Below are positions 6,714 through 42,447 of a DNA stretch of 42,447 nucleotides, one piece after another. The stretch comes from a virus. Position 1 is the stretch's first letter. Every line of letters starts with the position of its first letter. The notes under the pieces are model-generated. The model was not told where the DNA came from, did not search any database, and saw only the letters and a program-made list of their open reading frames with translations. Position numbers and translations under genes: made by a program. The stretch lies in IMG/VR virus record IMGVR_UViG_3300045988_116402. One strand, 5' to 3'.

Positions 6714-7496
6714 TTAGTATTCCTTCAATTTAACTTTCAAGTCTGCCGCACTTTCTATGCGTGTATAATGCGGATATGACTTAATCGCCTTGTAAGCGGC
6801 AAGCTCTGCGGCTGTAAGCGGTGTTTCAATGGGTGTGGCGAGAACTCCACATACTTCAAATGGCAATAACGGTGTTAGATATGATTTAAGTGTATCTACT
6901 GTGTAATCAGTATTTTGGGGCGGTGATATGTATAATCCTGTGGTGTTGACTGCACCTACCCATTTTAATGGTTGTGGCTTTCCCCAAGCAAAATAAGATG
7001 CAATAGCGATTATACTTTTCACGTTTCCGGAACCATAACCAGAAAGAATAGTCCAGTCCACATATCTTCCTTTCAATTCTGTTTCCTGAAGTCTATCAAG
7101 AGTTTTAACAGTACTTTTCTTAACTCTCTGTACATATACCCCACGTTCAAAATCTACCTCATCACATATCCATTGCTGCCCCGTACTATCTGTATAATTA
7201 CCGCCGGTGTCAACAGGTATGCCGCAAAGTCCATTAGGTGTATTGATTGTAAGCGTTTGGCTATTGCCGTTATTGTCTGATACCACCACATCTACACTCC
7301 CACCGTCACCTATGCTATTGATAGGAATAGGATTTTCTGGACTTGGGACACCATTCTGCGTACTTTTTCCATATACCTTAAGTCCCAACTCTGCACGATA
7401 TGTATTTTCTGCCACTATATCTGTGCCTTGATATTCATGCTCTTTTGCATGGTAGCGATTGTTGCCATGCAGCAATAACATATTATCACTTATCAC
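6714..7496 (-). CDS. Tail fibre / receptor-binding protein candidate
   Basis: 260 aa, start overlaps the upstream fibre gene. N-terminal motif GKSTQNGVPSPENPIPI is common in Firmicutes phage distal tail proteins (recalled from memory). Last structural gene before lysis. Confidence 0.45.
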   Translation of the reverse strand: MISDNMLLLHGNNRYHAKEHEYQGTDIVAENTYRAELGLKVYGKSTQNGVPSPENPIPINSIGDGGSVDVVVSDNNGNSQTLTINTPNGLCGIPVDTGGNYTDSTGQQWICDEVDFERGVYVQRVKKSTVKTLDRLQETELKGRYVDWTILSGYGSGNVKSIIAIASYFAWGKPQPLKWVGAVNTTGLYISPPQNTDYTVDTLKSYLTPLLPFEVCGVLATPIETPLTAAELAAYKAIKSYPHYTRIESAADLKVKLKEY

Positions 7497-9019
7497 GCAA
7501 TCACCGTCCTTGACCAGTTGTAATAACTGCCATCATACAAAAACGTATACTGATACATACCACCTGTTGGTAAGTCCATATAGTCATAGTCGTAAGCTTT
7601 CTTGCTGTTTTCCGGCAGTGTTATATCTAAGTCTGTCTGTATAAGCCCGACCGCTCCGTTATACACGTTACTGATACTTACAAGGTCAGCAGTAAGCTTG
7701 ATTTTGTCAGCCGCCGAATAATCCCACACACCATCATCAACAATCACAAAACTTTCATATCGTTTAGGCTTATTAATTAAGTCGGTATAACTTCCCGTTG
7801 TTGCGACAGTGGCAAGCTGCAAGATGTTAAGCAGGTAATCCTTAGACGGAGCAACAAGCTGTATGTCAGTCAGCCATACCCAAGTAGGATTACTTAACGC
7901 CGTACCATCTATTGCCGTTGTATAGTACATATAAGCAGATTGTACATCACCCAGCACAAAACAAATGTCCTTTTCTTTGGGATTTGCGATAGCTCGCATC
8001 TCATCAATAGTCTGTGCAATGTATATTGTTGGCATTAAGCCTATAAGCTTACGTTGCTCTTCGAGGATAGCCCGGCTTTCCACAATCATTTCCGACACCT
8101 CTGTTTTATCTGTGCCGACCTGTACGGCGAGTTGTTTTGTCGTAGTTACGTTAGTGTCGGTCTTATCCTTGTTGAGTGAGGCTGAATTGGCTTGTTCCAC
8201 AGCAGTGTCTTTTGCTATTATTGCATCGTTTTTGGCTGCAACAGCTTCATTTTTTGCAGTGATTGTATCTTGCTTCGCAATCAAAATATCACTTTTAGCA
8301 TTTAATACAATTTCTTTATCCGCCGAAACTTGATTAGCAGTATCTACCACTGTATTTTTTGCGTTTTCAGCTGTTGTAGCTGACTCTATTGCTTTATTTG
8401 ACAAGTTGGTAGCTGTCGCAATCTGTCCCTCGACGCTATCCTTAGCTTTACTCGTTTCAACTGCAAGAGCTTTTGTTTGAGATAAAAACTCATAGGTTTG
8501 CTGTTTATTGTTTTCAGCGTATTTTGCGTGTTCTAACGCCTCTTGCTCTGACTTTTCTGCGTTTAATGAGTATGTCTGAGCAAGGTCAACATACCCCTTT
8601 ATCTGCTCGGTTGATACATTAAGATACTGTGCTGTATCTGTCTGCATAACATAATAGTTATCATCTTGATTAATATTCGGAGCATTGCCGGTAATTATCT
8701 CGGTCGCAACTGTTTTTCTTATGGGAATTTTTGTATAGATTGTTTTTGATACACTTTTATCTTTAAAATTTAACTGCGCTTCATACAATATGTTTTTATT
8801 TCCATCAAACGATAGTGTGTCCTGTTGTGTACATGGGACTATAAACGCTCCATCCAGATATTTAACTGCACCGCTGTTATCCGCTTGGTACTTTTTCTGC
8901 ACTAATGGTGTTTCGTCGATACCGATACTAAACGAAAATATAGCATTATCAATAAGAGTAATATCCATATCCTTTACACTGGTTTTGATTACGCAAGTGC
9001 TACCCGGTATAATTGCCAT
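7493..9019 (-). CDS. Tail fibre/spike protein with long Ala/Lys/Thr-rich coiled-coil shaft
   Basis: 508 aa. The central segment AKDSVEGQIATATNLSNKAIESATTAENAKNTVVDTANQ... is a fibre-type coiled coil. GGAGGTGAT RBS. Confidence 0.55.
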   Translation of the reverse strand: MAIIPGSTCVIKTSVKDMDITLIDNAIFSFSIGIDETPLVQKKYQADNSGAVKYLDGAFIVPCTQQDTLSFDGNKNILYEAQLNFKDKSVSKTIYTKIPIRKTVATEIITGNAPNINQDDNYYVMQTDTAQYLNVSTEQIKGYVDLAQTYSLNAEKSEQEALEHAKYAENNKQQTYEFLSQTKALAVETSKAKDSVEGQIATATNLSNKAIESATTAENAKNTVVDTANQVSADKEIVLNAKSDILIAKQDTITAKNEAVAAKNDAIIAKDTAVEQANSASLNKDKTDTNVTTTKQLAVQVGTDKTEVSEMIVESRAILEEQRKLIGLMPTIYIAQTIDEMRAIANPKEKDICFVLGDVQSAYMYYTTAIDGTALSNPTWVWLTDIQLVAPSKDYLLNILQLATVATTGSYTDLINKPKRYESFVIVDDGVWDYSAADKIKLTADLVSISNVYNGAVGLIQTDLDITLPENSKKAYDYDYMDLPTGGMYQYTFLYDGSYYNWSRTVIA

Positions 9020-18110: not shown

Positions 18111-19796
18111 TCAAAACGGATTGCCCCAACGCTTAATTAATTCTTTTTTCTGCTCCGGTGTAGCTGCGTAGTAATCGTCATACTGGTCTGCTTCCCAGCG
18201 TGTTTTCTTCTGTGTCTTTCGTGTTTCTGTCATACTCTGCTGCTCTCTGATGCCGTATGTTATAGCAAGCCCCATAACAAGGTCGTCGTGTTCGCCTTCT
18301 TCCGCTTGCGGCTTACCTTTTATGCGGACAAATGATAGCATTTCGCGCAAAGTATCAACGTCATTAATAAGCTGTATCTCGTCCCTTGCTATCTGTACCA
18401 GATTAGCGATTATAACAGGTCTTGTTGCTGATGTAGTGCGGAAACCATACGATTTCTTAATCGCTCCCGTGAACGTGTCCGGCTGCTCTCTTACATACTG
18501 GCGATTATATCCCAATCTCGCTACCTCTCTAATCGGATATGTTGAGAAGTTAGCCTCTAAGCCTACAAGAGCAGTATTATAGTATTGTCCTAAGCAATAT
18601 ACTTGCCTTGAATACTCGTCCTCGTCGATATTATCATCATGTAATACTGCTACTTGCTCACCGGTTACATTATCTATTACATGAGCCGTAAAATAGTCGC
18701 TACCTTCTCCGGCTGTATCTCCACCCAGAACATACGGTCTTGACTTCTCCGGCTCTCGGAATATCTTGATATTGCCTCTGTCGTTGTCAATCCAACGGGC
18801 ATTAGTTATATATTGCCCGTCATAATCATATGCAAAATAACCACGTTTCAGCGGCTTACAGCCCTGTAAATCATTAATACGCTTAATAATAATAGCTGTA
18901 TCAAATACACAAGCTCCTGTTGCAATAAAGGCTTCTTCCGGTGTCGATGGATACTCTTGCTTGAATAAATTGATGTCGCCACCACAGTTATTTTTTATGC
19001 ACCATCTACGCCATGACAACTGCTCATTAGTAAGGTTATGTCTTGCCTTAAGCTCTTCTTCTTCCGGCGTAAGCTGGAAACCATCATAAAATCGGCTATA
19101 TTCCGCAAGCTCAAACCATGGGAAGAATACCGGAACAAAATCATTCTCACCGGCGACCGCAGAATCCCACAAACGCTTGAAATCATCATATCCGTTAGCT
19201 GTACTCTCTATAATAACCATTGTTCCGGGCTGTGCAGGTACAGACTGTAAAAGACCGTTAAGTGTTGCCATCTTATCCCCAGTCCAGAACGCGAACTCAG
19301 ATATATGTACATTACTGAGAGTATCAGAACGTCCTACACCGTCACCGCCTGCCGTTGCACATTTGATACGGCTATTAAGTCCAATGCCGCCCTCACTCTT
19401 AGCTGGGCTGTCAAATATAATCTCTCTTGCATTGCTCGCTTTTCTTGCCGGTTTAAGCATATCCGGCAGGTAAGAATAGAACAGCTTGGACATATTAAAC
19501 AAGTTAGTTGTGGCATCGTCTTTATGCGCTATTATCATACTGCTGATGTTAGGTTTGACCGCCGTCCTGTGAAATATTAATGCCTCCGTCAGCGTCGAGA
19601 ATCCCATCTGTCGAGCCTTAAGAATGATTAATCGTATCGGTTTACCTTGTCGTGCCTCATTACCAATTATCTTATATAATCGCTCTTGTGGCTCGTTGAG
19701 CCGGAGCGGAACAATCCTATTATCCTTAGTCCTAATGTGCAAAAATCGGCTTATATACTCTCTTGCATTGTATATATTAATCATGTTATCAGTCAT
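18111..19796 (-). CDS. terL: Terminase large subunit
   Basis: 561 aa. The ATPase-type segment ILKARQMGFSTLTEALIF and the nuclease-half acidic motifs are typical of Terminase_6-like TerL. Overlaps terS. Confidence 0.8.
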   Translation of the reverse strand: MTDNMINIYNAREYISRFLHIRTKDNRIVPLRLNEPQERLYKIIGNEARQGKPIRLIILKARQMGFSTLTEALIFHRTAVKPNISSMIIAHKDDATTNLFNMSKLFYSYLPDMLKPARKASNAREIIFDSPAKSEGGIGLNSRIKCATAGGDGVGRSDTLSNVHISEFAFWTGDKMATLNGLLQSVPAQPGTMVIIESTANGYDDFKRLWDSAVAGENDFVPVFFPWFELAEYSRFYDGFQLTPEEEELKARHNLTNEQLSWRRWCIKNNCGGDINLFKQEYPSTPEEAFIATGACVFDTAIIIKRINDLQGCKPLKRGYFAYDYDGQYITNARWIDNDRGNIKIFREPEKSRPYVLGGDTAGEGSDYFTAHVIDNVTGEQVAVLHDDNIDEDEYSRQVYCLGQYYNTALVGLEANFSTYPIREVARLGYNRQYVREQPDTFTGAIKKSYGFRTTSATRPVIIANLVQIARDEIQLINDVDTLREMLSFVRIKGKPQAEEGEHDDLVMGLAITYGIREQQSMTETRKTQKKTRWEADQYDDYYAATPEQKKELIKRWGNPF

Positions 19797-20307
19797 AATT
19801 ATAATCGCCGTCCTGCTTGCTTAAGAACTGCTCATATGTAACCGTTGCCGTAATCTCCTGCTTATCAGTAAGCCAACCGGCTATTTTTGCATATGTTTCC
19901 AACGCCTTAAGCTTATCATGCAGCCTTATAGTCATGCCGTACTTGTCTTGCCTAATGGACATGATAGCCGCCTGCTTGCTCGGATCTATCTCTGACGTGG
20001 GTATATACTTAAGCTTACCGTTCTCGTCGACATCTGCATAATCACAAATGTTAGAAAAACCGACCGCCGCCAGCTCTCTCAATACATCGTCTTGCGTTAT
20101 CTGTAGCCGCTTGTTTCGCTCCGTTTGCAACTCCTTGATGTAGTCTTGTATGTCCTTACGTTTGAGCAAGTTACGGGCATTACTGTTGCACCTGCCTTTG
20201 TCTTCCTCGCCATATGCGGCACCGTATGCCCTCGTTCCGTTATAGTCAATTATGTATTCTTGACAGAACAACCGTTCTTTTATTGCTTTCTTTTCTGACG
20301 TTCTCAT
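19789..20307 (-). CDS. terS: Terminase small subunit
   Basis: 172 aa. N-terminus KERLFCQEYIIDYNGTRAYGAAYG matches the Terminase_2 pattern F-x-x-E-Y-x-x-D-x-N-x-T-x-A. Directly upstream of terL. Confidence 0.7.
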   Translation of the reverse strand: MRTSEKKAIKERLFCQEYIIDYNGTRAYGAAYGEEDKGRCNSNARNLLKRKDIQDYIKELQTERNKRLQITQDDVLRELAAVGFSNICDYADVDENGKLKYIPTSEIDPSKQAAIMSIRQDKYGMTIRLHDKLKALETYAKIAGWLTDKQEITATVTYEQFLSKQDGDYNYD

Positions 20308-20951: not shown

Positions 20952-21033
20952 TCTATGCTTACATAGACACATTGTACAAATCTATGCTTGCATATTTAGT
21001 AATTGTGTCTATTGCAATCTATGAAAGCATAGA
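20952..21033. promoter_or_regulatory. Three operator-like palindromes TCTATG-N4-CATAGA
   Basis: Perfect copies at 20952-20967 (tctatgcttacataga) and 21018-21033 (tctatgaaagcataga), an imperfect copy at 20981-20996, and an extra half-site CATAGA at 21087-21092. Confidence 0.6.
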
Positions 21034-21040
21034 TTATAAT
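21012..21040 (+). promoter_or_regulatory. Sigma-A-type promoter of the accessory cassette (TTGCAA-17 bp-TATAAT)
   Basis: TTGCAA at 21012-21017, a 17-nt spacer containing operator 21018-21033, and TATAAT at 21035-21040. Confidence 0.6.
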
Positions 21041-21141: not shown

Positions 21142-21309
21142 ATGAAAAACTACAAAGAACATCACACATCATTAACAAGAGGCTACATCAGAGTTAATCA
21201 GGAAGTTAAAGAAGAGTATAACGGCAGATTCGGCAAGGGCTACATAATCAAAAGACACAATTCTAACAGCACACAGTATTGTTACATTACTTATTACGTA
21301 GAAGCTTGA
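21142..21309 (+). CDS. Small protein (55 aa), first gene of the accessory cassette
   Basis: Manual translation MKNYKEHHTSLTRGYIRVNQEVKEEYNGRFGKGYIIKRHNSNSTQYCYITYYVEA. Below the track cut-off; the RBS is weak and purine-rich. Confidence 0.35.
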   Translation: MKNYKEHHTSLTRGYIRVNQEVKEEYNGRFGKGYIIKRHNSNSTQYCYITYYVEA

Positions 21310-21323
21310 GAGGAGGAATAATC

Positions 21324-21809
21324 ATGAAATATTTTGAAGGAATTACAACGATCGATGAACTTAAGAAAGTTTATAGAAAGCTCTGCCAGCTTAACCACCC
21401 GGACAACGGCGGCAACGTAACTATCATGGCAGAAATCAATAACGAGTACACAAAACTTTTTAACATCTTAAAAAATCAGCACAACACAAAAGCGGAAGCA
21501 GACACAACAGGCAACACAAGACCTATAAACGAATGTCCGGAAGAATACATCAACATCATATCGGAGCTTGTAACACTTAAGGGCTTAACCGTTGAGCTGT
21601 GCGGCTCTTGGATATGGATAAGCGGAGACACAAGAGAGCATAAAGACAAACTTAAATCAATCGGCTGCCGCTGGGCGAGCAAGAAAAAGATGTGGTATTG
21701 GAGAAGTGAAGCAGATGCAGTTAAAAGCCGTAAAACCAAATCAATGGATTATATCCGCAATAAATACGGCTCAACATCTTACAGCACATCAGATTTATTA
21801 CTTGCATAA
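21324..21809 (+). CDS. J-domain (DnaJ-like) protein with a C-terminal W-rich domain
   Basis: Start moved to the ATG after the GAGAGGAGGA RBS. ELKKVYRKLCQLNHPDNGG carries the HPD signature. C-terminus reads GSWIWISGDTREHKDKLKSIGCRWASKKKMWYW. Confidence 0.8.
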   Translation: MKYFEGITTIDELKKVYRKLCQLNHPDNGGNVTIMAEINNEYTKLFNILKNQHNTKAEADTTGNTRPINECPEEYINIISELVTLKGLTVELCGSWIWISGDTREHKDKLKSIGCRWASKKKMWYWRSEADAVKSRKTKSMDYIRNKYGSTSYSTSDLLLA

Positions 21810-21813
21810 TATA

Positions 21814-21869
21814 ATAGCCGCACTGATGAGCCGTAATGACGGCGAAACCCCTCCGGGGTCTGCGGATAG
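21814..21869 (+). ncRNA. Type I hammerhead self-cleaving ribozyme
   Basis: Stem I CCGCA (21818-22) pairs with UGCGG (21861-65). Core CUGAUGA (21823-29). Stem II GCCGU-AAUG-ACGGC (21830-43). GAA (21844-46). Stem III A-CCCC-UCC-GGGG-U (21847-59). Cleavage-site C at 21860. All invariant core positions are present. Confidence 0.85.
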
Positions 21870-21880
21870 GAGGCGAAGCA

Positions 21881-22303
21881 ATGAAAGAGGAATGTATAAG
21901 AATATACGCTAATATGTACAATTATGAGGCTGTAGCAGACATTGACACTATTAAAAAGTATGACGACTACGCCAAAAATGATATAATACATTTGCAGACA
22001 GCTATCAACCGTATGCAGGAATACCGCTCTAAACTGTACGAGCACGCTCAAAAATTAGCAACGGCAGAATATACGCTGCAAGTATCAATTAAGCGTGAGA
22101 AGCGTTATTACCGAGATAATAAGGTATACTACTATATCAATATTGCAAAGGTCTTTCCGGGTATCGGAACAGAAACAATATTAGCGGAAACCTATCCCGG
22201 AACAGAACGCAACAAAGCAATAGTAAGATACAACGAATTATGTAAGCAATACCCAAAAGCGGAACACATCAAAAGTATTGACAAGGCACGCTGGGAGAAA
22301 TAA
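21881..22303 (+). CDS. Hypothetical protein (140 aa) downstream of the ribozyme
   Basis: Start at the ATG after the AGGAGG RBS (21868-73). Helical N-terminus; no family recognised. Confidence 0.6.
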   Translation: MKEECIRIYANMYNYEAVADIDTIKKYDDYAKNDIIHLQTAINRMQEYRSKLYEHAQKLATAEYTLQVSIKREKRYYRDNKVYYYINIAKVFPGIGTETILAETYPGTERNKAIVRYNELCKQYPKAEHIKSIDKARWEK

Positions 22304-22344
22304 TATTAAGATTAAGGAATAACAATAAAAAAGGAGACGATTAA

Positions 22345-22578
22345 ATGAAAGATTGGCAATTTGAAAACGGCATTGAAGTATACGAAAAACACTGGGATAA
22401 AGACTTGCATTGCTTAGAAGTGTACAACAGGACCGAATACCTCGGCACTGTATATCCCGGGGATATTGAGAATATGCAATATTGTTTTAAACTATTAGAT
22501 AGCGGCAAAGACCCCATTAGTGATGGCTGGGAAGATGGTTGCGGAAACGCTTGTACATTAGATGGCTGGGGAGAATAA
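22345..22578 (+). CDS. Small acidic protein (77 aa) with C-terminal DGWEDGCGNACTLDGWGE motif
   Basis: ORF with an AAAGGAGA RBS. No family recognised. Confidence 0.55.
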   Translation: MKDWQFENGIEVYEKHWDKDLHCLEVYNRTEYLGTVYPGDIENMQYCFKLLDSGKDPISDGWEDGCGNACTLDGWGE

Positions 22579-22584
22579 CCTTAA

Positions 22585-22611
22585 GGGGGGCAATATCGCC
22601 CCCTATTTTTT
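22585..22611 (+). terminator. Intrinsic terminator between the 77-aa gene and the Cas8c-like gene
   Basis: GGGGGC-aatatc-GCCCCC hairpin followed by TATTTTTT. Confidence 0.65.
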
Positions 22612-22626
22612 GGAGGAATAAGTAAA

Positions 22627-23403
22627 ATGAATTTCGATAAAGTTTTAGATTTACACGATTTGCTTAACCTTGAAGAGATTATCCCTGTTGCTCACACTCG
22701 CATACTTCCGCACATCGGTGTATTATTATCCGATAACGGAAATTTTATCGGTGCAATGATTATCAACAATGAGCGTTGTTCTATTCCTTGTACAATCGAA
22801 TCAGAAAGCCGAACAAGCGGCATTGCACCACACATAATACATGATAAGATGTTATATATATGCGGCAATTACCCAAAATACGAACAACACCACAACACCT
22901 ATATGCAACAGCTATCCAATTATATAAGCAATGTTGACGATAAGCTCGCAAAAGCAGTTTTTATTTACCTGCAAAAAGGTACTTTAAATTTTGATATAAA
23001 AAATTTATTGTCACAACTGCATGTGAAAGAAGAGAAAGCGAATATAATATTTTTAACGCCTAACATTGACGATACAATAAACAAAAAATGGACTGAATAC
23101 TATGTTAATTCGCTTCCTAAGAACGGCATTTGCAGTTTAACAGGTGTACCTGATTACATACCATCGACATACCCGAGATACATTCGCAGTCATATTGACT
23201 TAGCAAGATTATTTGTAGGCAAACAAAACGATCTTGATTCGATGCCCGCATTGCTTCCCGGATATATAGCATCACAAAAAATAATCCATACTTTACAATT
23301 TGTTTGCTTTGAGGGTGAAAACTGGGCTTATAATGTAATGCGTAATCATTACAACGAATTACCCGACGATTTGAAAACAAAGGTTGATAATTATTTTAAC
23401 TGA
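22627..23403 (+). CDS. Cas8c/Csd1 N-terminal-domain-like protein (truncated type I-C large-subunit homologue)
   Basis: 258 aa. Motifs IIPVAHT, IPCTIESESRTSGIAPHIIHDKMLYICGNY, IYLQKGTL, CSLTGVP...YPRYIRSHIDLARLF and ASQKIIHTLQF appear in the order I recall for the first ~300 aa of Firmicutes Cas8c/Csd1 proteins (about 600 aa in full). Not verified by any search. Confidence 0.55.
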   Translation: MNFDKVLDLHDLLNLEEIIPVAHTRILPHIGVLLSDNGNFIGAMIINNERCSIPCTIESESRTSGIAPHIIHDKMLYICGNYPKYEQHHNTYMQQLSNYISNVDDKLAKAVFIYLQKGTLNFDIKNLLSQLHVKEEKANIIFLTPNIDDTINKKWTEYYVNSLPKNGICSLTGVPDYIPSTYPRYIRSHIDLARLFVGKQNDLDSMPALLPGYIASQKIIHTLQFVCFEGENWAYNVMRNHYNELPDDLKTKVDNYFN

Positions 23404-23414
23404 AAATTAAATAA

Positions 23415-23440
23415 GCCCCGGTTTCCCGGGGCATTTTTTA
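23415..23440. terminator. Bidirectional intrinsic terminator between convergent genes
   Basis: GCCCCGG-tttc-CCGGGGC hairpin with a T-run on the plus strand (ATTTTTTAT) and a T-rich tract on the minus strand. Confidence 0.75.
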
Positions 23441-23830
23441 TAGTAAATTTAACGCTTTTGAATGTAGTTGGCGTACATATGACACATTATATTTAAGCTC
23501 TGCGGCAATCTCTTTGTAGCTCTTATACTCGACATGGCGTTTATATAATATCTCAACCAGTATAGGATTTTTAAGCTCATGTATTTTATCAATTACAATG
23601 TGTCTTGTAATTATCAATTCCGCTTTTTTTCTGCTGATTTCTGTTTCTATGTCTACAACATTTGCGACATCCTCAGCCAATTTATCACTTGTTGATGCCT
23701 GTACTCTTTCGCCGACTTTCGCCGTTATGCTTTCCGCATCTTCTCTAAGCCTAACGAGTTCTTTTTCCTTCTGCTGTATTTGCACATCTAATAGCCGGAG
23801 CTGATTAAGATAAGTATTCGCATTCTTCAT
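23438..23830 (-). CDS. Late-gene transcriptional regulator candidate (DUF1492 / sigma-70 region-4-like)
   Basis: The track ORF begins at a TTG; the ATG at 23830 follows a GGTAGGTGA RBS. The C-terminus ILYKRHVEYKSYKEIAAELKYNVSYVRQLHSKAL is a region-4-type HTH. Last gene of the early operon. Confidence 0.55.
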   Translation of the reverse strand: MKNANTYLNQLRLLDVQIQQKEKELVRLREDAESITAKVGERVQASTSDKLAEDVANVVDIETEISRKKAELIITRHIVIDKIHELKNPILVEILYKRHVEYKSYKEIAAELKYNVSYVRQLHSKALNLL

Positions 23831-23834
23831 GTTA

Positions 23835-24038
23835 TCACCTACCCTCAATCATTTTTAACAGTTTTGTCATGTCATAAAAATTACATGGGTCTAATCCGGT
23901 GCTTTCCTTTATCTTTTTTCTGTGCCATGCAACAGCGTTATAGCTATAAGATATGCTTTTAGCCGCTTTTGTCATGTTTAAATTACTTTCGGCTAATGCT
24001 CTTATAAATACAATATCATCTGTTCTTATTCCCGGCAT
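23835..24038 (-). CDS. Small HTH DNA-binding protein
   Basis: 67 aa. NMTKAAKSISYSYNAVAWHRKKIKESTG is HTH-like. Confidence 0.45.
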   Translation of the reverse strand: MPGIRTDDIVFIRALAESNLNMTKAAKSISYSYNAVAWHRKKIKESTGLDPCNFYDMTKLLKMIEGR

Positions 24039-26667: not shown

Positions 26668-27663
26668 TTACTCAACCTCAATTCCTGTAATAGCCATGAA
26701 TATTTCTGCATTAAATTCAGGCAAGCTCTTGAAATACTCAATCAGTTTTTCCGGCATATCTTTATATGCCGCCTTATCATCTACGCCCTCAATTCTCGAT
26801 GCAGGAACACATTCCCATTTCTTTTCTTTCTTGTAGTAATCAAAAGCATTTGTAAATTTCGGATACCACCCATCCGCACATTCTCTTATATTTTCTTCAA
26901 CTTCATCGAATCGTTCCTTATCAATATTTAAGTTAAACAATTTATATCTGCCAGTCTCGTTAATGCACATAATAGAATATGCAAGACCTTCGCATTTTTT
27001 GATGTAATAGCAATTAAATATGCCGTCGCTGTTGCGTATGCCGTAGCTGTTGCTTATGCCGTAGCCGTTGCTTATGCCGTAGCCGTTGCTTATGCCGTCG
27101 CTGTTGCTTATGCCGTAGCCGTTGCTTATGCCGGAGCTGTTGCGTATGCCGTAGCCGTTGCTTATGCCGTAGCTGTTGCTTATGCCGGAGCTGTAGCGTA
27201 TGCCGTAGCCGTTGCTTATGCCGAAGCTGTTGCTTATGCCGGAGCTGTAGCGTATGCCGTAGCCGTTGCGTATGCCGTAGCTGTTGATATTTGTAGTATA
27301 ACTCTTAATTTCCTCCACAAATTCTTCAAAACTTAAAACTTTTACTATTTCGAGTATTTCAACAGCAACTTTGCTATCTTTATCATCCCTCGAAACAGCC
27401 CCATATCCTTTGACTTTTGCAAATTTATTCCATTGCACAAAGGGGTAATAACTAAAACAATCTAACGGATTTTCACAAAAATGTAAGCCGTTGTGGCACT
27501 TGTCCGGAAATCCCTCTTGTCTATGTACAACACCTTCCACATTGCCGTCTTTATTGGCATAGCAATAGTTATCTCCGTAATTTGCTGTCCAATCATAATT
27601 AAAAATCTTGTAACCCTCTGCAACAACCTGTAATCCGTTTAATACACTTCTATCCACTATCAT
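26668..27663 (-). CDS. Two-domain protein: conserved N-terminal phage domain (GLHFCENPLDCFSYYP motif, DUF7666-like), 15 hexapeptide repeats, and a C-terminal domain
   Basis: Start moved to the ATG after the ACAGGAGGAAG RBS (Met18 of the track ORF). The repeats read (S/R/I)(N/Y)(G/S)(Y/S/F/D)GI x15. Confidence 0.65.
   Translation of the reverse strand: MIVDRSVLNGLQVVAEGYKIFNYDWTANYGDNYCYANKDGNVEGVVHRQEGFPDKCHNGLHFCENPLDCFSYYPFVQWNKFAKVKGYGAVSRDDKDSKVAVEILEIVKVLSFEEFVEEIKSYTTNINSYGIRNGYGIRYSSGISNSFGISNGYGIRYSSGISNSYGISNGYGIRNSSGISNGYGISNSDGISNGYGISNGYGISNSYGIRNSDGIFNCYYIKKCEGLAYSIMCINETGRYKLFNLNIDKERFDEVEENIRECADGWYPKFTNAFDYYKKEKKWECVPASRIEGVDDKAAYKDMPEKLIEYFKSLPEFNAEIFMAITGIEVE
27019..27288. 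repeat. 15 tandem copies of an 18-bp unit (tatgccgtagccgttgct consensus), in frame within CDS 26668..27663
   Basis: Counted directly: 15 units x 18 bp, with variation confined to a few positions per unit. Confidence 0.95.
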
Positions 27664-27679
27664 TCTATTCTTCCTCCTG

Positions 27680-28099
27680 TCAGAACGGCAAATCATCGTC
27701 TTTAACGTCATCATCTATCGGATAAAAACCTTCCCCGATGCCGTCATTCTCACGTTTCCGGCCATTTTCCGCATTGCTTTTCTTGCTTTCGGCAAAGTAC
27801 TGTTCCTCTGCGACAACCTCAATCGTAGTCCTCTTGTTTCCGTAGTTGTCGTCCCAATTCCGGACCTGCAAACGTCCTACAACCGAAATCATCTGACCTT
27901 TTGTTAAATACTTTTCTGCAAACTCGCCCTGCTTACCGAAGGCAACGCACGGAATAAAATCCGCATCCGGTTCACCCTGACGTTTAAATCGTCTATTGAC
28001 CGCAAGTGAATATCTGGCAATCGCCAAAGGTTCTGCCCCCTGCGAGTATCTGACCTCCGGGTCTTTTGTTAGCCGGCCCATTAAAATCGATTTATTCAT
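27680..28099 (-). CDS. ssb: Single-stranded DNA-binding protein
   Basis: MNKSILMGRLTKDPEVRYS...OB-fold pattern and the acidic C-terminal tip DDDLPF. Confidence 0.9.
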   Translation of the reverse strand: MNKSILMGRLTKDPEVRYSQGAEPLAIARYSLAVNRRFKRQGEPDADFIPCVAFGKQGEFAEKYLTKGQMISVVGRLQVRNWDDNYGNKRTTIEVVAEEQYFAESKKSNAENGRKRENDGIGEGFYPIDDDVKDDDLPF

Positions 28100-28160: not shown

Positions 28161-28877
28161 TCATACAACCACTTTCAGCCTATAATTTCGATCTCTGACC
28201 TTAGCTATGTTTAAAACAAACTTGCCGCACATTTGTTTTATCCGGCTGCCGATTGCTTCGTCAATAGCCATAACCTCGTTAAGCATTAACTCACTCGATA
28301 TAATTGTGGTTTTTTGTGAGGTATAACGTGAATTTATCAGTCTGAAAAAGTGTTTTATATCTGCCTCAGATGTTCCGCCTTTAAACATATCGTCAATGTA
28401 AAGGATTTTTACTTGACAAAGCCTATTTATAAGCCTGTTATAATCCTCCGCATCGTTGACCAATGCTTTAAGCTCTCTTATCATTTCACCATATATGACA
28501 TATCTAAAAGGCTTGCCTTGCTTATAAAATTCATTGCATATTGCAGTACATAGGTGCGTTTTTCCGCAGCCAACCTGACCGCCGATGTAAAAGCCTTTTA
28601 CTTCGGCCTGCTGGCTGAATTGATACGCTGTGCTTTTTGCCCTTTGCTGAAAGTCCTCAACTGCTTCATATCGGTCAAAGCTCATTCGCTCAAGCATTTT
28701 ATCATCAAGTCCCGAACGCCTTAAATCCGCCTTTAAATCGGCTTGAATTTTGCATTTGCAAGGCTTTGCATATTCATAACCGTTTATTGTTTCAAGTACA
28801 AAGCCCTTATCCTTGCAGACCTCGCAGTTATAATGTGTCACCGCAGACACCTTCAAATTCGGTATTGTAAACTGCAT
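28161..28877 (-). CDS. DnaC/IstB-like AAA+ helicase loader with an N-terminal Cys cluster
   Basis: Walker A GGQVGCGKTH, Walker B ILYIDDM, and N-terminal CEVCKDKG...CKC. Confidence 0.75.
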   Translation of the reverse strand: MQFTIPNLKVSAVTHYNCEVCKDKGFVLETINGYEYAKPCKCKIQADLKADLRRSGLDDKMLERMSFDRYEAVEDFQQRAKSTAYQFSQQAEVKGFYIGGQVGCGKTHLCTAICNEFYKQGKPFRYVIYGEMIRELKALVNDAEDYNRLINRLCQVKILYIDDMFKGGTSEADIKHFFRLINSRYTSQKTTIISSELMLNEVMAIDEAIGSRIKQMCGKFVLNIAKVRDRNYRLKVVV

Positions 28878-29523
28878 TTCGCCTTCCCCCTTTATCCTGC
28901 TCTTTTGCCAACCATCCGTTTATAAACCGATTAATACCCTTTCGTGTTTTTCGTCGGCTTTCATTGGCGTTCAACCACCCCCTCATGGCTTTTAACTGCT
29001 GTATCACGTCGACAGCAGGGTACAGTTCCGCCCATTCTTGAACTGCTCCGTCATATATGGGATATTGGCTCTTATCGTTCAACGGTAATGTTATTATCGG
29101 CGGCTCGGAAGCTTGCTCCGAGCAGATGTCTTTATAATCATTAACATTATCATTATCATTTACATTATCATTATCATTTACATTAACATTATCATTAGGT
29201 TCTGTATTTTTCGTGTTTGGTTCGTGTTTGGTTCGTGTTTGGTTCGTGTTTGGTTCGTGTTCGGTTGCGTTTTGGTTTGTGTTTGGTTCGTCTCGGAACG
29301 CTGTTTTACCACCTTTTTTACCATTTGCATACCTTTGGTTATTCTTATCGATTTGTGGTTTAGCCATTAAAAAGATAGATTTTGCAATTCCACTTGTTTC
29401 TGGCACTTTGCCTTCGAAGCCGTATTCCATTAAAGCGGTCATACAGTTTTTAAAATCTTCCGGCGGCAGTTCTTTTATTGCATCAAAAAAACTTTTGTAG
29501 AATACTATGCTGTCCCTTTCCAT
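28828..29523 (-). CDS. Replisome organiser / DnaD-like replication initiator, with low-complexity repeats encoded by internal iterons
   Basis: N-terminus FYKSFFDAIKELPPEDFKNCMTALMEYGF and C-terminus RKTRKGINRFINGWLAKEQDKGG are typical of Firmicutes phage replisome organisers. It lies upstream of the loader gene. Confidence 0.55.
   Translation of the reverse strand: MERDSIVFYKSFFDAIKELPPEDFKNCMTALMEYGFEGKVPETSGIAKSIFLMAKPQIDKNNQRYANGKKGGKTAFRDEPNTNQNATEHEPNTNQTRTKHEPNTKNTEPNDNVNVNDNDNVNDNDNVNDYKDICSEQASEPPIITLPLNDKSQYPIYDGAVQEWAELYPAVDVIQQLKAMRGWLNANESRRKTRKGINRFINGWLAKEQDKGGRRNAVYNTEFEGVCGDTL
29137..29297. repeat. Putative origin of replication: AT-rich 18-bp repeats followed by 7-8 tandem 11-bp iterons (ttcgtgtttgg)
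   Basis: Four perfect 11-mers at 29210-29253, then degenerate copies to 29297. Just upstream, acattatcattatcattt-type repeats at about 29137-29200. Confidence 0.55.
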
Positions 29524-40241: not shown

Positions 40242-42447
40242 TTATTCAATTACGCCTTGTTTTTTATTTTCCTCACTTTTCTTTTTGTTGTTTATATAGT
40301 TTTTATAATCATTCACCGTAAGGTTATTTATATTATAAGTATCTGAAATTCTGTATTCCTTAACTATATCTTTACTTGCGTGCTTATCAGCATAACCGTA
40401 TAAAAAGTTAAGTGTTGCTATCTTTTCGTCATCGGAAAGATTTTTCCAATATGAAGATTTAACGAGCTCCGGCATTTCTTCTTCAAGTATTTTTGAATAC
40501 GATGACATATATTTAGATTTATCTTTTGCACTCATTTCATGCTTAATGGCTTTATATTCTTTTGTGGCATTCTGTGAGATTGTTTCAGGTGCTTCATATT
40601 TCGGTAGTATTTTACTGTCTTCAGTTGAATTATAAATGTTTTGTATCGCTTTTATAGTGGCATCATCAAGATTACCGGCTCGATCTTCAAGTGCTAATCT
40701 CAAATATTCATCACGCTGTTTACCACTTGCTTTCTTGATATTCTGATTTGACATATCTTTATACAATGCTTCATATTCTGTTTTAAGTTTCGGTGAAACA
40801 AAACCGATTATTCCGACTGTATACTTTTCAGCATTTGACAATGGAACACCTGTCATTTTTGATATAGCAATAGCAAAATCATGTGCCGATTTAAAAGCCT
40901 TGCTTTTTTCTTTTGACATATATTCAGGTAATACTCCCTGTTGTCTTGCATCTGCCGCACCCTTTATATAATCTGTGAGATTTTTAGTAAAATCTACACT
41001 TGTTTCTACAATGTCATTAATCATATCAAGCGTAACTTCTTCTGTGCCATAGTATGTATCTCCGTTTACAATCGAATTGAATATATTATATATCTGAGTG
41101 CCTAAATAAATATTTCCAACCGCAGCTTCTAAATAAGCTCTTTTATAATAGTTCATTACACTTCGTACCGTTATATTACCGTTTTCATCACGTAATTTTT
41201 TATCATTAGTTACAGCTTGAGCCAATGATGTCATTGCCACAACAACAGCATTTGCAGTAGCCAACGAAAGTATAGTTGACCTAAGTTTTTTTGCAGCTTT
41301 CTTCTTTTCGTTGCTGTTACCTTTTTTGCTCTCGGCTTTATAGGCGCTGTAAGCACTGTACATCATGTTGTAATTCTGGTTTCGCTGTGTAGCAAACATA
41401 TTAAATGCTTTAGCCACTGAGCTTTTGCTACGCGATATACCTGTGCGTTGCATTATATTATACATAGGCTGCGTATTTTCCAATGTTGTTTCGTAAAGAT
41501 GTGTAACTGCGTTCCAAAAATCTTCGCTGCCTACTTCATATTTATTTTTATTTAATATATTAAAATATGCCGCACACGCAATTTCATCAGTTGCCCATAA
41601 ATCCATGTTACGAATCCACTTCATTGGATTGGCAAAGTCTTTAACGTTTTGATATTTTGATACCGCTTTAAAACCACCTGTGTTTAATGCATTAAGCTCT
41701 GCTGTTGAGTTGCCTCTATATGCTCTATCCCACCTATATCCGGTTCTCTTGTCAATTTGACTGAGTATTGATTTACGCAACTTAGGAGATGTACCAAATA
41801 ATCCTTTTATTATATTTGCTCCGCCGACTTCAGGAGCCGCTGTTACAATCGAGGCCGTCTGCTGTAATGACACTTTAGGATTTGCACTTAATACGGACGC
41901 TGCGTAATTACTCATAAGTTTTCCGGCAAAAACATCGATAAAATAATTATCGGAGCCAACACTATTAAGGTCTTTTACAAACTTATTTACATAATCAATC
42001 ATATCATTACCATAAGTGTCCAAAACAGCTTTCTTCAAAGTTGTCCCACTATCATTCTTTGTATTCCAAATCATACTAAAATCACGCATTGGAACGCCAT
42101 ATCCGACAAGCTTTGATACATCATTTATAGCGTCTATTACAACATCGACAGCATTTCTTCCTTTTATTGCTACTCCGGTTGTTCCGGTTCTTTCTTTCAG
42201 AAATCCGGCGTTATTTATATTTCCTTCCGTTTTATTAAGATTAAACTCTGTTACAATAGTATCTTTATCAACAGCTTTAGGATAATAATTTTTTTCTTGT
42301 GCTCTTTCATATCCATGTGTAATCATAGATACTTCATTAATTGCATTGGTTGACATAGTGTTAAAATACTTAAATGCTATTTTTGCAAATTCTTTTTCTG
42401 CCTCTGTCATTCCTCCGACAATTCTTTTTATATCTTCCGGCTTTAAA
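40242..42447 (-). CDS. Giant virion-associated / polyvalent-type protein, C-terminal part (same gene as 1..3585)
   Basis: The track ORF 40242..42410 starts at an internal Met. The frame stays open upstream to the window end and joins 1..3585 in frame through the 76-bp overlap. Confidence 0.85.
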   Translation of the reverse strand, partial: LKPEDIKRIVGGMTEAEKEFAKIAFKYFNTMSTNAINEVSMITHGYERAQEKNYYPKAVDKDTIVTEFNLNKTEGNINNAGFLKERTGTTGVAIKGRNAVDVVIDAINDVSKLVGYGVPMRDFSMIWNTKNDSGTTLKKAVLDTYGNDMIDYVNKFVKDLNSVGSDNYFIDVFAGKLMSNYAASVLSANPKVSLQQTASIVTAAPEVGGANIIKGLFGTSPKLRKSILSQIDKRTGYRWDRAYRGNSTAELNALNTGGFKAVSKYQNVKDFANPMKWIRNMDLWATDEIACAAYFNILNKNKYEVGSEDFWNAVTHLYETTLENTQPMYNIMQRTGISRSKSSVAKAFNMFATQRNQNYNMMYSAYSAYKAESKKGNSNEKKKAAKKLRSTILSLATANAVVVAMTSLAQAVTNDKKLRDENGNITVRSVMNYYKRAYLEAAVGNIYLGTQIYNIFNSIVNGDTYYGTEEVTLDMINDIVETSVDFTKNLTDYIKGAADARQQGVLPEYMSKEKSKAFKSAHDFAIAISKMTGVPLSNAEKYTVGIIGFVSPKLKTEYEALYKDMSNQNIKKASGKQRDEYLRLALEDRAGNLDDATIKAIQNIYNSTEDSKILPKYEAPETISQNATKEYKAIKHEMSAKDKSKYMSSYSKILEEEMPELVKSSYWKNLSDDEKIATLNFLYGYADKHASKDIVKEYRISDTYNINNLTVNDYKNYINNKKKSEENKKQGVIE
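42372..42447. repeat. Terminal direct repeat (copy 2), identical to 1-76
   Basis: Same 76-mer as window start. Confidence 0.95.

Follow-up and report, generated by a model that had tools for sequence, protein, structure and literature searches.

Why would a phage encode a single domain of a bacterial immune protein, and nothing else of the system to which that protein belongs? The question is posed by one gene in a viral stretch of 42,447 nucleotides (IMG/VR record IMGVR_UViG_3300045988_116402), which was analysed at its full length and is called the window below. The gene, here named mini-cas8c, encodes a stand-alone homologue of the domain at the N-terminus (NTD) of Cas8c/Csd1, the large subunit of the type I-C Cascade complex in CRISPR immunity. 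On balance, we lean towards the answer that a temperate Lachnospirales phage uses this isolated domain as an anti-CRISPR (Acr) against the type I-C system of its host. The gene is laid out as follows:

22627..23403, plus strand: mini-cas8c coding sequence, ATG start, 258 amino acids; stand-alone homologue of the Cas8c/Csd1 NTD
22612..22617, plus strand: Shine-Dalgarno-like GGAGGA, 9 nucleotides 5' of the mini-cas8c ATG, read from the sequence

The predicted protein (~30 kDa, pI about 6) is matched by the Pfam family Cas_Csd1 (PF09709) with 58.3 bits and an E-value of 7.5e-16, against a gathering cutoff of 27, and the alignment places residues 16-182 opposite profile positions 12-197 of 559. 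Three Cas8c models in PADLOC also match, with E-values from 1e-25 (best 1.2e-25) to 2e-18, in alignments that span the first ~195 of ~530 model positions. The NCBIfam equivalog model TIGR01863 gives 28.1 bits, below its cutoff of 218.65, as would be expected because mini-Cas8c corresponds to one domain of a four-domain protein. These profile matches identify mini-Cas8c as a predicted domain homologue of Cas8c, and not as an equivalog. A tblastn search of plasmids returned annotated full-length cas8c genes only (25-28% identity, E-values down to 1e-16), and none of the short form. With the single sequence as query, phmmer found no match in the PDB, Cas8c being reached by profiles only, and no PHROGs family matches the protein.

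A preliminary description of the locus had read this gene as a truncated Cas8c homologue, a reading that is now borne out by Pfam, PADLOC, tblastn and, as described below, Foldseek; of the two profile checks that it had proposed, the Pfam one exceeded its cutoff and the TIGRFAM one produced a match that fell short. The five motifs that it listed are all present, in that order, in the 258-residue translation of the open reading frame (ORF). Are these motifs really landmarks of Cas8c? An alignment of 76 sequences of the short clade defined below with 83 full-length Cas8c sequences argues that they mostly are. Conserved in both groups are P20, H23, G38, P54, T56, S59, R62, P68, H69, D73, Y77, Y92 and L96, and, further along the chain, C169, T172, G173, P183, D191, L195, G212, Y213, S216, Q217, K218 and L223. 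The exception is 'KLIS-ND', which the short clade does not conserve, so that the 'RLFVGKQND' of the window resembles it only superficially. The description had also held that the protein lacks the Cas11-like half of Cas8c. That bundle is indeed absent, but so are the wedge and adaptor domains, and the NTD alone remains.

The structural evidence, obtained by the AlphaFold and Foldseek comparison that had likewise been suggested, agrees with this assignment. An AlphaFold2 model built from a 60-sequence family alignment is confident and compact, with a predicted local distance difference test score (pLDDT) of 87.7 and a predicted template-modelling score (pTM) of 0.82; its only weak part comprises residues ~181-210, with pLDDT about 58. 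Foldseek found five significant matches to this model in the PDB (8GAF_G, 8DFS_I, 8G9U_H, 8DEJ_I and 8G9T_K), every one a Cas8c chain from type I-C Cascade. Their E-values run from 2e-7 to 1.6e-4, the sixth match having an E-value of 2.7, and the query-normalised template-modelling (TM) score reaches 0.66. Among the viral predicted structures of BFVD, the model has no match.

Where does the homology end? The family profile was searched exhaustively with HMMER against 1.84 billion representatives, and among the 1353 matches short proteins (about 110-308 amino acids) score 177 bits or more and full-length Cas8c proteins (580-690 amino acids) 148 bits or less. In the full-length proteins, it is always residues ~2-290 that correspond to family profile positions ~3-235. 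Hu et al. divided the Cas8c of Neisseria lactamica into an NTD (1-259), a wedge (260-348), an adaptor (349-457) and a Cas11-like C-terminal domain (CTD; 458-582), and located a Cas3 'recruit loop' at residues 276-297, within the wedge. By alignment, mini-Cas8c is thus the Cas8c NTD alone: because it ends at the NTD boundary (1-259 in N. lactamica), the wedge, the adaptor and the Cas11-like CTD are absent. Two segments within the domain have fared very differently with respect to the full-length proteins, one belonging to the loop that reads the protospacer-adjacent motif (PAM):

22786..22845, plus strand: segment homologous to the PAM-interaction loop, codons 54-73 (PCTIESESRTSGIAPHIIHD), from profile alignment to Cas8c
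23176..23259, plus strand: degenerate segment replacing the 'KLISxND...GRF' wedge-region signature, codons 184-211, from low pLDDT and alignment

The profile alignment sets R62-T63-S64-G65 of the window opposite K70-G71-N72-G73 of Desulfovibrio vulgaris, the PAM-reading glycine loop. The corresponding P...D loop of N. lactamica has the same length as that of the window and bears the PAM-interaction loop R69-S70-G71-S72. A single loop profile, P-[CV]-T-x-x-S-x-x-R-[TS]-S-[GN]-x-A-P-H, is common to the short clade and full-length Cas8c, and S59 and R62 are found in 97% of the former and 100% of the latter. The second segment has the opposite history. The equivalents of S197, N199 and D200 are conserved at 0.86-0.99 in full-length Cas8c and variable in the short clade. 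The D. vulgaris wedge residue Q212 aligns to I190 of the window, and the 'KLISxND...GRF' signature comes after the Q212 position. Segment 166-233 averages 69 residues in the short clade versus 86 in the full-length proteins, and its net charge is +1.2 versus +4.2; this segment alone differs, the net charge of the whole NTD showing no significant difference between the two groups (p = 0.21). Mini-Cas8c thus keeps the PAM reader, while the parts for unwinding and recruiting are gone or degenerate.

Is the short form an accident of this one genome? A search of 5.8 billion proteins recovered 59 clusters of relatives, all of 153-333 amino acids and all but two matching the Cas_Csd1 Pfam family, and the family alignment has about 48 near-invariant columns. 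Neighbour-joining groups the 27 representatives (at 50% identity) that surround the window protein into a single clade, which has no full-length member, and midpoint rooting splits this short clade from full-length Cas8c. The ratio of nonsynonymous to synonymous substitution rates (dN/dS) has a median of 0.156 over 266 pairs, and is 0.135 between the window and locus L001; the short clade is under purifying selection. Given a monophyletic short clade and a dN/dS of about 0.16, the protein is to be regarded as conserved, functional and always short, and not as a remnant. The nearest full-length relatives (P0097, P0106 and P0099) are encoded in canonical cas3-cas5-cas8c-cas7(-cas4-cas1-cas2)-array loci.

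The family is found in at least 94 IMG/VR viral contigs, mostly from human-gut Lachnospirales phages, and two Lachnospiraceae metagenome-assembled genomes also carry it. Megablast and tblastn searches of 50,697 GenBank phage records found no relative, and one family member is indexed in 343 data blocks of a public collection. A few other short Cas8c-like matches lie outside the clade and may be fragments. A second kind of orphan Cas8c-like protein, P0208 (481 amino acids; L096 8001-9446 and L097 4412-5857), matches the family profile over its first ~274 residues and is encoded in a prophage, beside integrase and Ku/LigD genes and without cas neighbours. Its length would fit Cas8c minus the Cas11-like CTD only, and it is possibly an independent Cas8c-derived inhibitor.

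The survey of homologues that the preliminary description had called for, which found the clade to be always short, also provided a set of gene neighbourhoods. This set comprises 93 loci, or 14 distinct clusters at 90% identity. All 93 lie in a phage or prophage context, each with exactly one homologue and never with a cas neighbour. What, then, are the neighbours? Fifteen loci have, 12-17 nucleotides upstream of mini-cas8c, a gene for an acidic 65-residue protein that is recognised by the Pfam family AcrIC5 (37.9 bits against a cutoff of 27); AcrIC5 itself is a validated type I-C inhibitor with Firmicutes orthologues. At the other side, in 19 loci, the 3' end of mini-cas8c is overlapped by 11 nucleotides by a gene for a 59-residue helix-turn-helix (HTH) protein of the XRE type (HTH_3), which resembles the Aca (anti-CRISPR-associated) regulators. 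A small HTH gene just downstream occupies the classic aca position. The complete operon of AcrIC5-like gene, mini-cas8c and HTH_3 gene occurs in 13 loci from four sequence clusters. Moreover, in the protein P0002 an HTH_3 domain is fused to the N-terminus of mini-Cas8c, as in known Acr-Aca fusions.

A third type of neighbour, a basic protein of 302 amino acids encoded directly downstream in 20 loci (for example, L049 6948-7856), carries a pair of CxCxC-(18 residues)-CxC modules and, at the C-terminus, an AP2-like domain. For this protein, the best match in the PDB is to AP2/ERF at a weak E-value of 0.15, the Pfam AP2 family is not detected, and the PHROGs matches are limited to the DNA-binding part of HNH homing endonucleases. 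CasPRs are anti-CRISPRs that silence transcription and have a CapR plus AP2 architecture, and the 302-residue protein tentatively fits that architecture. We also considered whether mini-Cas8c might itself be a CasPR and rejected the idea: CasPRs are CapR/AP2 DNA binders and not Cas homologues, and the CasPR-like gene is merely a neighbour.

The commonest immediate upstream partner, in 37 loci, is an acidic protein of ~128 amino acids (pI 4.05) that belongs to phrog_18666 and has no Pfam match. Genes of this type are present in 45 of the 93 loci (L002-L007 9605-9988 and L090 7278-7664, among others), and three more loci carry a 113-residue relative. The phages with the P0008-type protein (L002-L007), which are abundant gut phages of ~50 kb, also encode the anti-Thoeris proteins Tad4 (PF25186) and a Tad2-like protein (PF11195), and so appear to be multi-anti-defence phages. 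Further Acr candidates are thus to be sought among these neighbours, namely in the acidic phrog_18666 family, the acidic 77- and 209-residue proteins and the CapR/AP2 proteins.

Do the hosts offer a target? For members of the clade, the IMG/VR host predictions given in Table S3 of Katz et al. (see below) are Fusicatenibacter, Blautia_A, Enterocloster and unclassified Lachnospiraceae, and for the sister phage of the window the prediction is Metalachnospira (Anaerotignaceae, Lachnospirales). Ruminococcus gnavus is documented to have type I-C systems whose spacers match phages, and a type I-C system is known from Enterocloster clostridioformis. The host check asked for by the preliminary description therefore leads to Lachnospirales, an order with members that carry active type I-C systems. 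The large terminase of the window is at most 33% identical to that of any cultured phage, and no host could be inferred from it.

How might an isolated NTD inhibit type I-C immunity? Judged by homology and gene context, mini-Cas8c is probably a type I-C anti-CRISPR of one kind or another, and the context supports this well, since relatives lie in acr-type operons, next to a CasPR-like gene or in fusion with an HTH domain. Argued from analogy, a faulty-subunit mechanism in particular is a more tentative proposal, to which we would give somewhat less than an even chance. The protein would act as a dominant-negative substitute, replacing either the native NTD or the large subunit as a whole. Present in excess during infection or lysogeny, it might take the docking site of the native NTD at the end of Cascade formed by Cas5c, Cas7 and the 5' handle of the CRISPR RNA (crRNA); alternatively, it might be assembled into Cascade in place of full-length Cas8c. 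The resulting complexes would perhaps still touch the PAM, but could neither open DNA nor recruit Cas3, the missing wedge, adaptor and Cas11-like domains being those that unwind DNA, hold the R-loop locked and present the recruit loop to Cas3. Displacement of the native NTD is plausible because that domain is mobile on Cascade: in D. vulgaris Cascade it is unresolved in the apo state, and in N. lactamica AcrIC8 displaces it. The closest parallel would be AcrIB3, a homologue of Cas5 that becomes part of a defective type I-B Cascade.

Several observations weigh against this account. Mini-Cas8c shares no more than about 25-28% identity with the nearest full-length Cas8c, less than the 38% between AcrIB3 and Cas5, so that the Cas5c/Cas7 interface may not be conserved. 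Because AcrIC5 is predicted to bind the PAM site of Cas8c, a functional PAM loop in mini-Cas8c would fit poorly with the co-expression of an AcrIC5-like protein. The copy in the window has no AcrIC5-like, HTH or CasPR-like neighbour, and only the acidic 77-residue protein adjoins it. Finally, among 65 type I-C spacers, drawn from two arrays that belong to complete type I-C loci of the closest full-length Cas8c relatives, there were only chance matches of 13-18 nucleotides to the window and the 93 phage loci, a negative result that says little because so few arrays were tried.

The main rival is an equally concrete alternative to binding of the PAM or of Cas5c/Cas7c, in that the free NTD would act on the nuclease and still be an anti-CRISPR. 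In N. lactamica, the anchor loop of Cas3 (F437) docks in a groove of the Cas8c NTD that becomes accessible only once the R-loop has fully formed; in a free NTD this groove would always be open, and such an NTD could sequester Cas3 or block its recruitment. The helicase domain of Cas3 contacts the Cas8 NTD, with the anchor loop entering a conserved hydrophobic pocket, and mini-Cas8c corresponds to that NTD by length and fold. A precedent exists in AcrIF3, which mimics the Cas8f helical bundle and binds Cas2/3, and the evidence from acr-locus context counts equally for this model. We nonetheless judge it unlikely, since the HD-binding recruit loop in the wedge (residues 276-297) is absent, leaving at most half of the 'handshake', and the strict conservation of the PAM loop is left unexplained. 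Perhaps the Cas similarity is a matter of ancestry only, the Cas8c-NTD scaffold having been co-opted as a phage DNA-binding or regulatory accessory protein with no role in CRISPR immunity. The 25-28% identity to full-length Cas8c does point to a long independent evolution, AcrVIA2 shows that Cas homologues can switch target completely, no recognised acr marker surrounds the copy in the window, and the neighbouring HTH, Zn-ribbon and AP2 genes could be phage regulators or relics of homing endonucleases. It is harder to reconcile such a role with the repeated tight operon linkage to a gene of the type I-C-specific AcrIC5 family in four distinct sequence clusters, with retention of the Cas8c-specific PAM-loop signature at 97-100% or with the fact that every context is a phage accessory region, and we consider it more unlikely than the capture of Cas3.

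A different proposal turns the target around: an NTD made by a prophage could soak up the PAM-mimicking Acrs of rival phages (of the AcrIC5, AcrIC9 and AcrIF2 type), and in this way protect the CRISPR immunity of the lysogen and exclude superinfecting phages. Known type I-C Acrs do bind PAM-recognition elements of the Cas8c NTD, the PAM loop of mini-Cas8c is strictly conserved, and the phage is temperate, with an integrase. Yet sharing an operon with AcrIC5-like and Aca-like HTH genes would be self-defeating for such a device, which also has no precedent and strikes us as highly improbable. In a broader form, the protein would be a decoy for the PAM-recognition surface, working either as a sponge or as an obligate two-part device together with its acidic operon partner, and hence an anti-anti-CRISPR or a modulator of Acr activity derived from a Cas domain. 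This form is compatible with the strict conservation of the PAM loop and with the repeated pairing of the gene with those for small, very acidic proteins. Co-transcription with the AcrIC5-like gene argues against its simple sponge version; it too is very improbable, if less so than the sponge by itself. Lastly, the gene might be a relic, in decay, of a type I-C system once carried by a phage, or an artefact of assembly or annotation. Some phages carry whole CRISPR-Cas systems, and the few short Cas8c-like matches outside the clade may be fragments. Such an origin is scarcely credible for the clade itself, considering its dN/dS of about 0.16, its monophyly, the length and the start and stop positions, which agree in at least 94 viral contigs and 59 protein clusters, the confident and compact AlphaFold2 model and the lack of further cas remnants in a complete genome. 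We have rejected the pseudogene, remnant and artefact readings as effectively refuted by these facts.

The genome that carries this candidate anti-CRISPR is whole. Positions 1-76 and 42372-42447 of the window form an exact 76-nucleotide direct terminal repeat, and these identical ends show that the phage genome, of about 42.37 kb, is complete and was assembled as a circle. Its GC content is 38.2%, and its gene set is that of a temperate tailed phage: integrase, RusA, single-strand binding protein (SSB), small and large terminase, capsid protein, holin and endolysin. The 65 ORFs, which cover 96% of the sequence, were scanned with PADLOC and Pfam, and no cas gene besides mini-cas8c was found among them. 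Across the whole genome there is no CRISPR array, no Rfam match, no tRNA and no type I-C-like repeat, nor was any solitary type I-C repeat found when up to 7 substitutions were allowed. The claims of the preliminary description that the gene stands without other cas genes, without an array and without a solitary repeat have all held, as has its statement that mini-cas8c sits in a slot delimited by terminators, given the consensus hairpins at 22585-22604 and 23415-23432. The surroundings of the gene are as follows:

19789-20307, minus strand: terminase small subunit
21012-21040 and 22278-22306: promoter-like sites, pattern matches only
21142..23403, plus strand: accessory cassette, with minus-strand modules on either side, for packaging and for replication; from the ORF map
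22345..22578, plus strand: acidic 77-residue protein, pI 4.26, directly 5' of mini-cas8c
22585..22611, plus strand: terminator-like hairpin (GGGGGGCAATATCGCCCCCT) at 22585-22604, then a T-run, between the 77-residue ORF and mini-cas8c; consensus scan, pattern only
23415..23432, no strand assigned: bidirectional terminator-like hairpin (GCCCCGGTTTCCCGGGGC); consensus scan of both strands
23438-23848, minus strand: sigma-70-region-4-like regulator gene, matching Sigma70_r4 and phrog_36

The cassette consists of a 55-residue ORF, a J-domain-like 176-residue ORF, a 155-residue ORF, the acidic 77-residue ORF and, as its last gene, mini-cas8c, which the hairpin at 23415..23432 separates from the convergent regulator gene. 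The acidic 77-residue protein has no match in Pfam or PHROG. Its gene is the immediate upstream neighbour in 5 loci and is co-conserved with mini-cas8c in the sub-clade of the window, which makes the protein a candidate partner or second inhibitor. The 176-residue protein (21279-21809, plus strand) has a J-domain-like N-terminus with an HPD motif, for which Pfam DnaJ reaches 19.8 bits and so stays below the cutoff; phrog_15863, of unknown function, is matched by the protein at 1.5e-52.

Some features elsewhere in the window may be recorded here. The DUF7666 gene (ORF 26668-27714, minus strand) contains at 27019-27286 an 18-nucleotide tandem repeat of about 15 copies with 88% matches, which encodes a hexapeptide repeat. 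A second tandem repeat, of 11 nucleotides (TTCGTGTTTGG) and about 7.5 copies, lies at 29210-29291 within ORF 28828-29523 (minus strand); its period is not a multiple of three, and an 18-nucleotide repeat at 29137-29197 adjoins it. On the minus strand, 24079-24378 matches phrog_474, whose annotation as 'phosphofructokinase' is doubtful, and the adjoining 24375-24668 matches phrog_2245, a MazG-like NTP pyrophosphohydrolase. One protein of the window matches the PADLOC model 'CARF3--CARF' (E 3.7e-7), and others match RmrA (1e-8), HTH_VI, mad1 and DrmD; all of these are probably generic domain matches.

How new is a Cas-derived inhibitor? Katz et al. (bioRxiv 10.1101/2023.06.24.545427; Nature 2024) have reported Acr activity for homologues of Cas proteins: AcrIB3 resembles Cas5, AcrIB4 corresponds to the last 90 amino acids of Cas8b and is Cas11-like, and AcrVIA2 is Cas3-like. 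They proposed that acr genes evolve through co-option of cas genes, and listed 358 orphan viral cas genes from IMG/VR in their Table S3; no Cas8c homologue was tested in the preprint (bioRxiv 10.1101/2023.06.24.545427). Seven contigs of that table carry members of the present clade (3300045988_008992, 3300029739_000022, 3300029729_000184, 3300029660_000034, 3300030432_000005, 3300029101_000235 and 3300045988_088686). The last of these, IMGVR_UViG_3300045988_088686, is a sister phage of the window, with ~93% nucleotide identity over 82% of the 12.8-kb stretch compared. Its mini-Cas8c is 99% identical to that of the window and is listed as an orphan viral cas8c, the tabulated coordinates 7010-7501 lying inside the sister-phage gene at 6785-7558. 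These entries of Table S3 belong to the present family and appear there as a BLAST line only, with none of the NTD-only architecture, clade, context, structure or test. In the literature searched, no paper was found that describes or tests that architecture, the clade or its context, and a 2024 review states that Cas proteins are apparently not broadly recruited as inhibitors. The concept is nevertheless already known, and the mini-cas8c family has already been flagged as a candidate by Katz et al.; the novelty implied by the preliminary description was overstated, since Cas-derived Acrs had been published and the sister-phage orthologue catalogued.

A specialist familiar with that work would not be surprised by the present proposal. 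If it is true, mini-Cas8c would, as far as the literature searched shows, be the first Cas-derived type I-C inhibitor, and the first Acr to copy the N-terminal domain with which a large subunit reads the PAM. From type I-B in Listeria, the principle of the 'viral cas gene' would be extended to abundant human-gut Lachnospirales phages, and nature would have provided a dissection of Cas8c in which PAM reading stands apart from the unwinding of DNA and the recruitment of Cas3. In gut Firmicutes, type I-C ranks with the most frequent CRISPR subtypes, and genome editing employs it to make large deletions. The protein might possibly offer a new off-switch for type I-C editors.

Comparison with known systems places mini-Cas8c between its parent and several kinds of inhibitor. 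With Cas8c/Csd1 (PDB 8DEJ, 8G9U and 7KHA) it has in common the fold of the NTD, the signature of the PAM-interaction loop and many conserved residues; it differs in having 258 versus about 580-690 amino acids, no wedge, adaptor or CTD, no internal Cas11 ORF and no cas operon. AcrIC5, AcrIC4, AcrIC8, AcrIC9 and AcrIF2 have the same presumed target, and the AcrIC5 family supplies the operon partner in the 15 related loci, yet these Acrs are proteins of about 50-130 amino acids, mostly acidic mimics of PAM or DNA or allosteric binders, that are unrelated to Cas proteins, whereas mini-Cas8c is a 30-kDa Cas-derived domain. AcrIF3 also imitates part of a type I large subunit, but its sequence shows no detectable homology to Cas8f and the domain mimicked is another one, whereas mini-Cas8c is an overt homologue and copies the NTD. 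The closest relatives in concept are AcrIB3 and AcrIB4 of Listeria phages and plasmids, which are likewise mobile-element proteins homologous to a Cascade subunit and encoded outside cas operons; they lie in anti-defence loci and are proposed to be faulty subunits, as has been shown for AcrIB3. In comparison, mini-Cas8c has type I-C and not I-B as its presumed target, and its identity to the Cas parent is about 25-28%, against 38% for AcrIB3. AcrIB4 copies the C-terminal Cas11-like bundle of a large subunit, while mini-Cas8c copies the opposite end, the N-terminal domain that reads the PAM.

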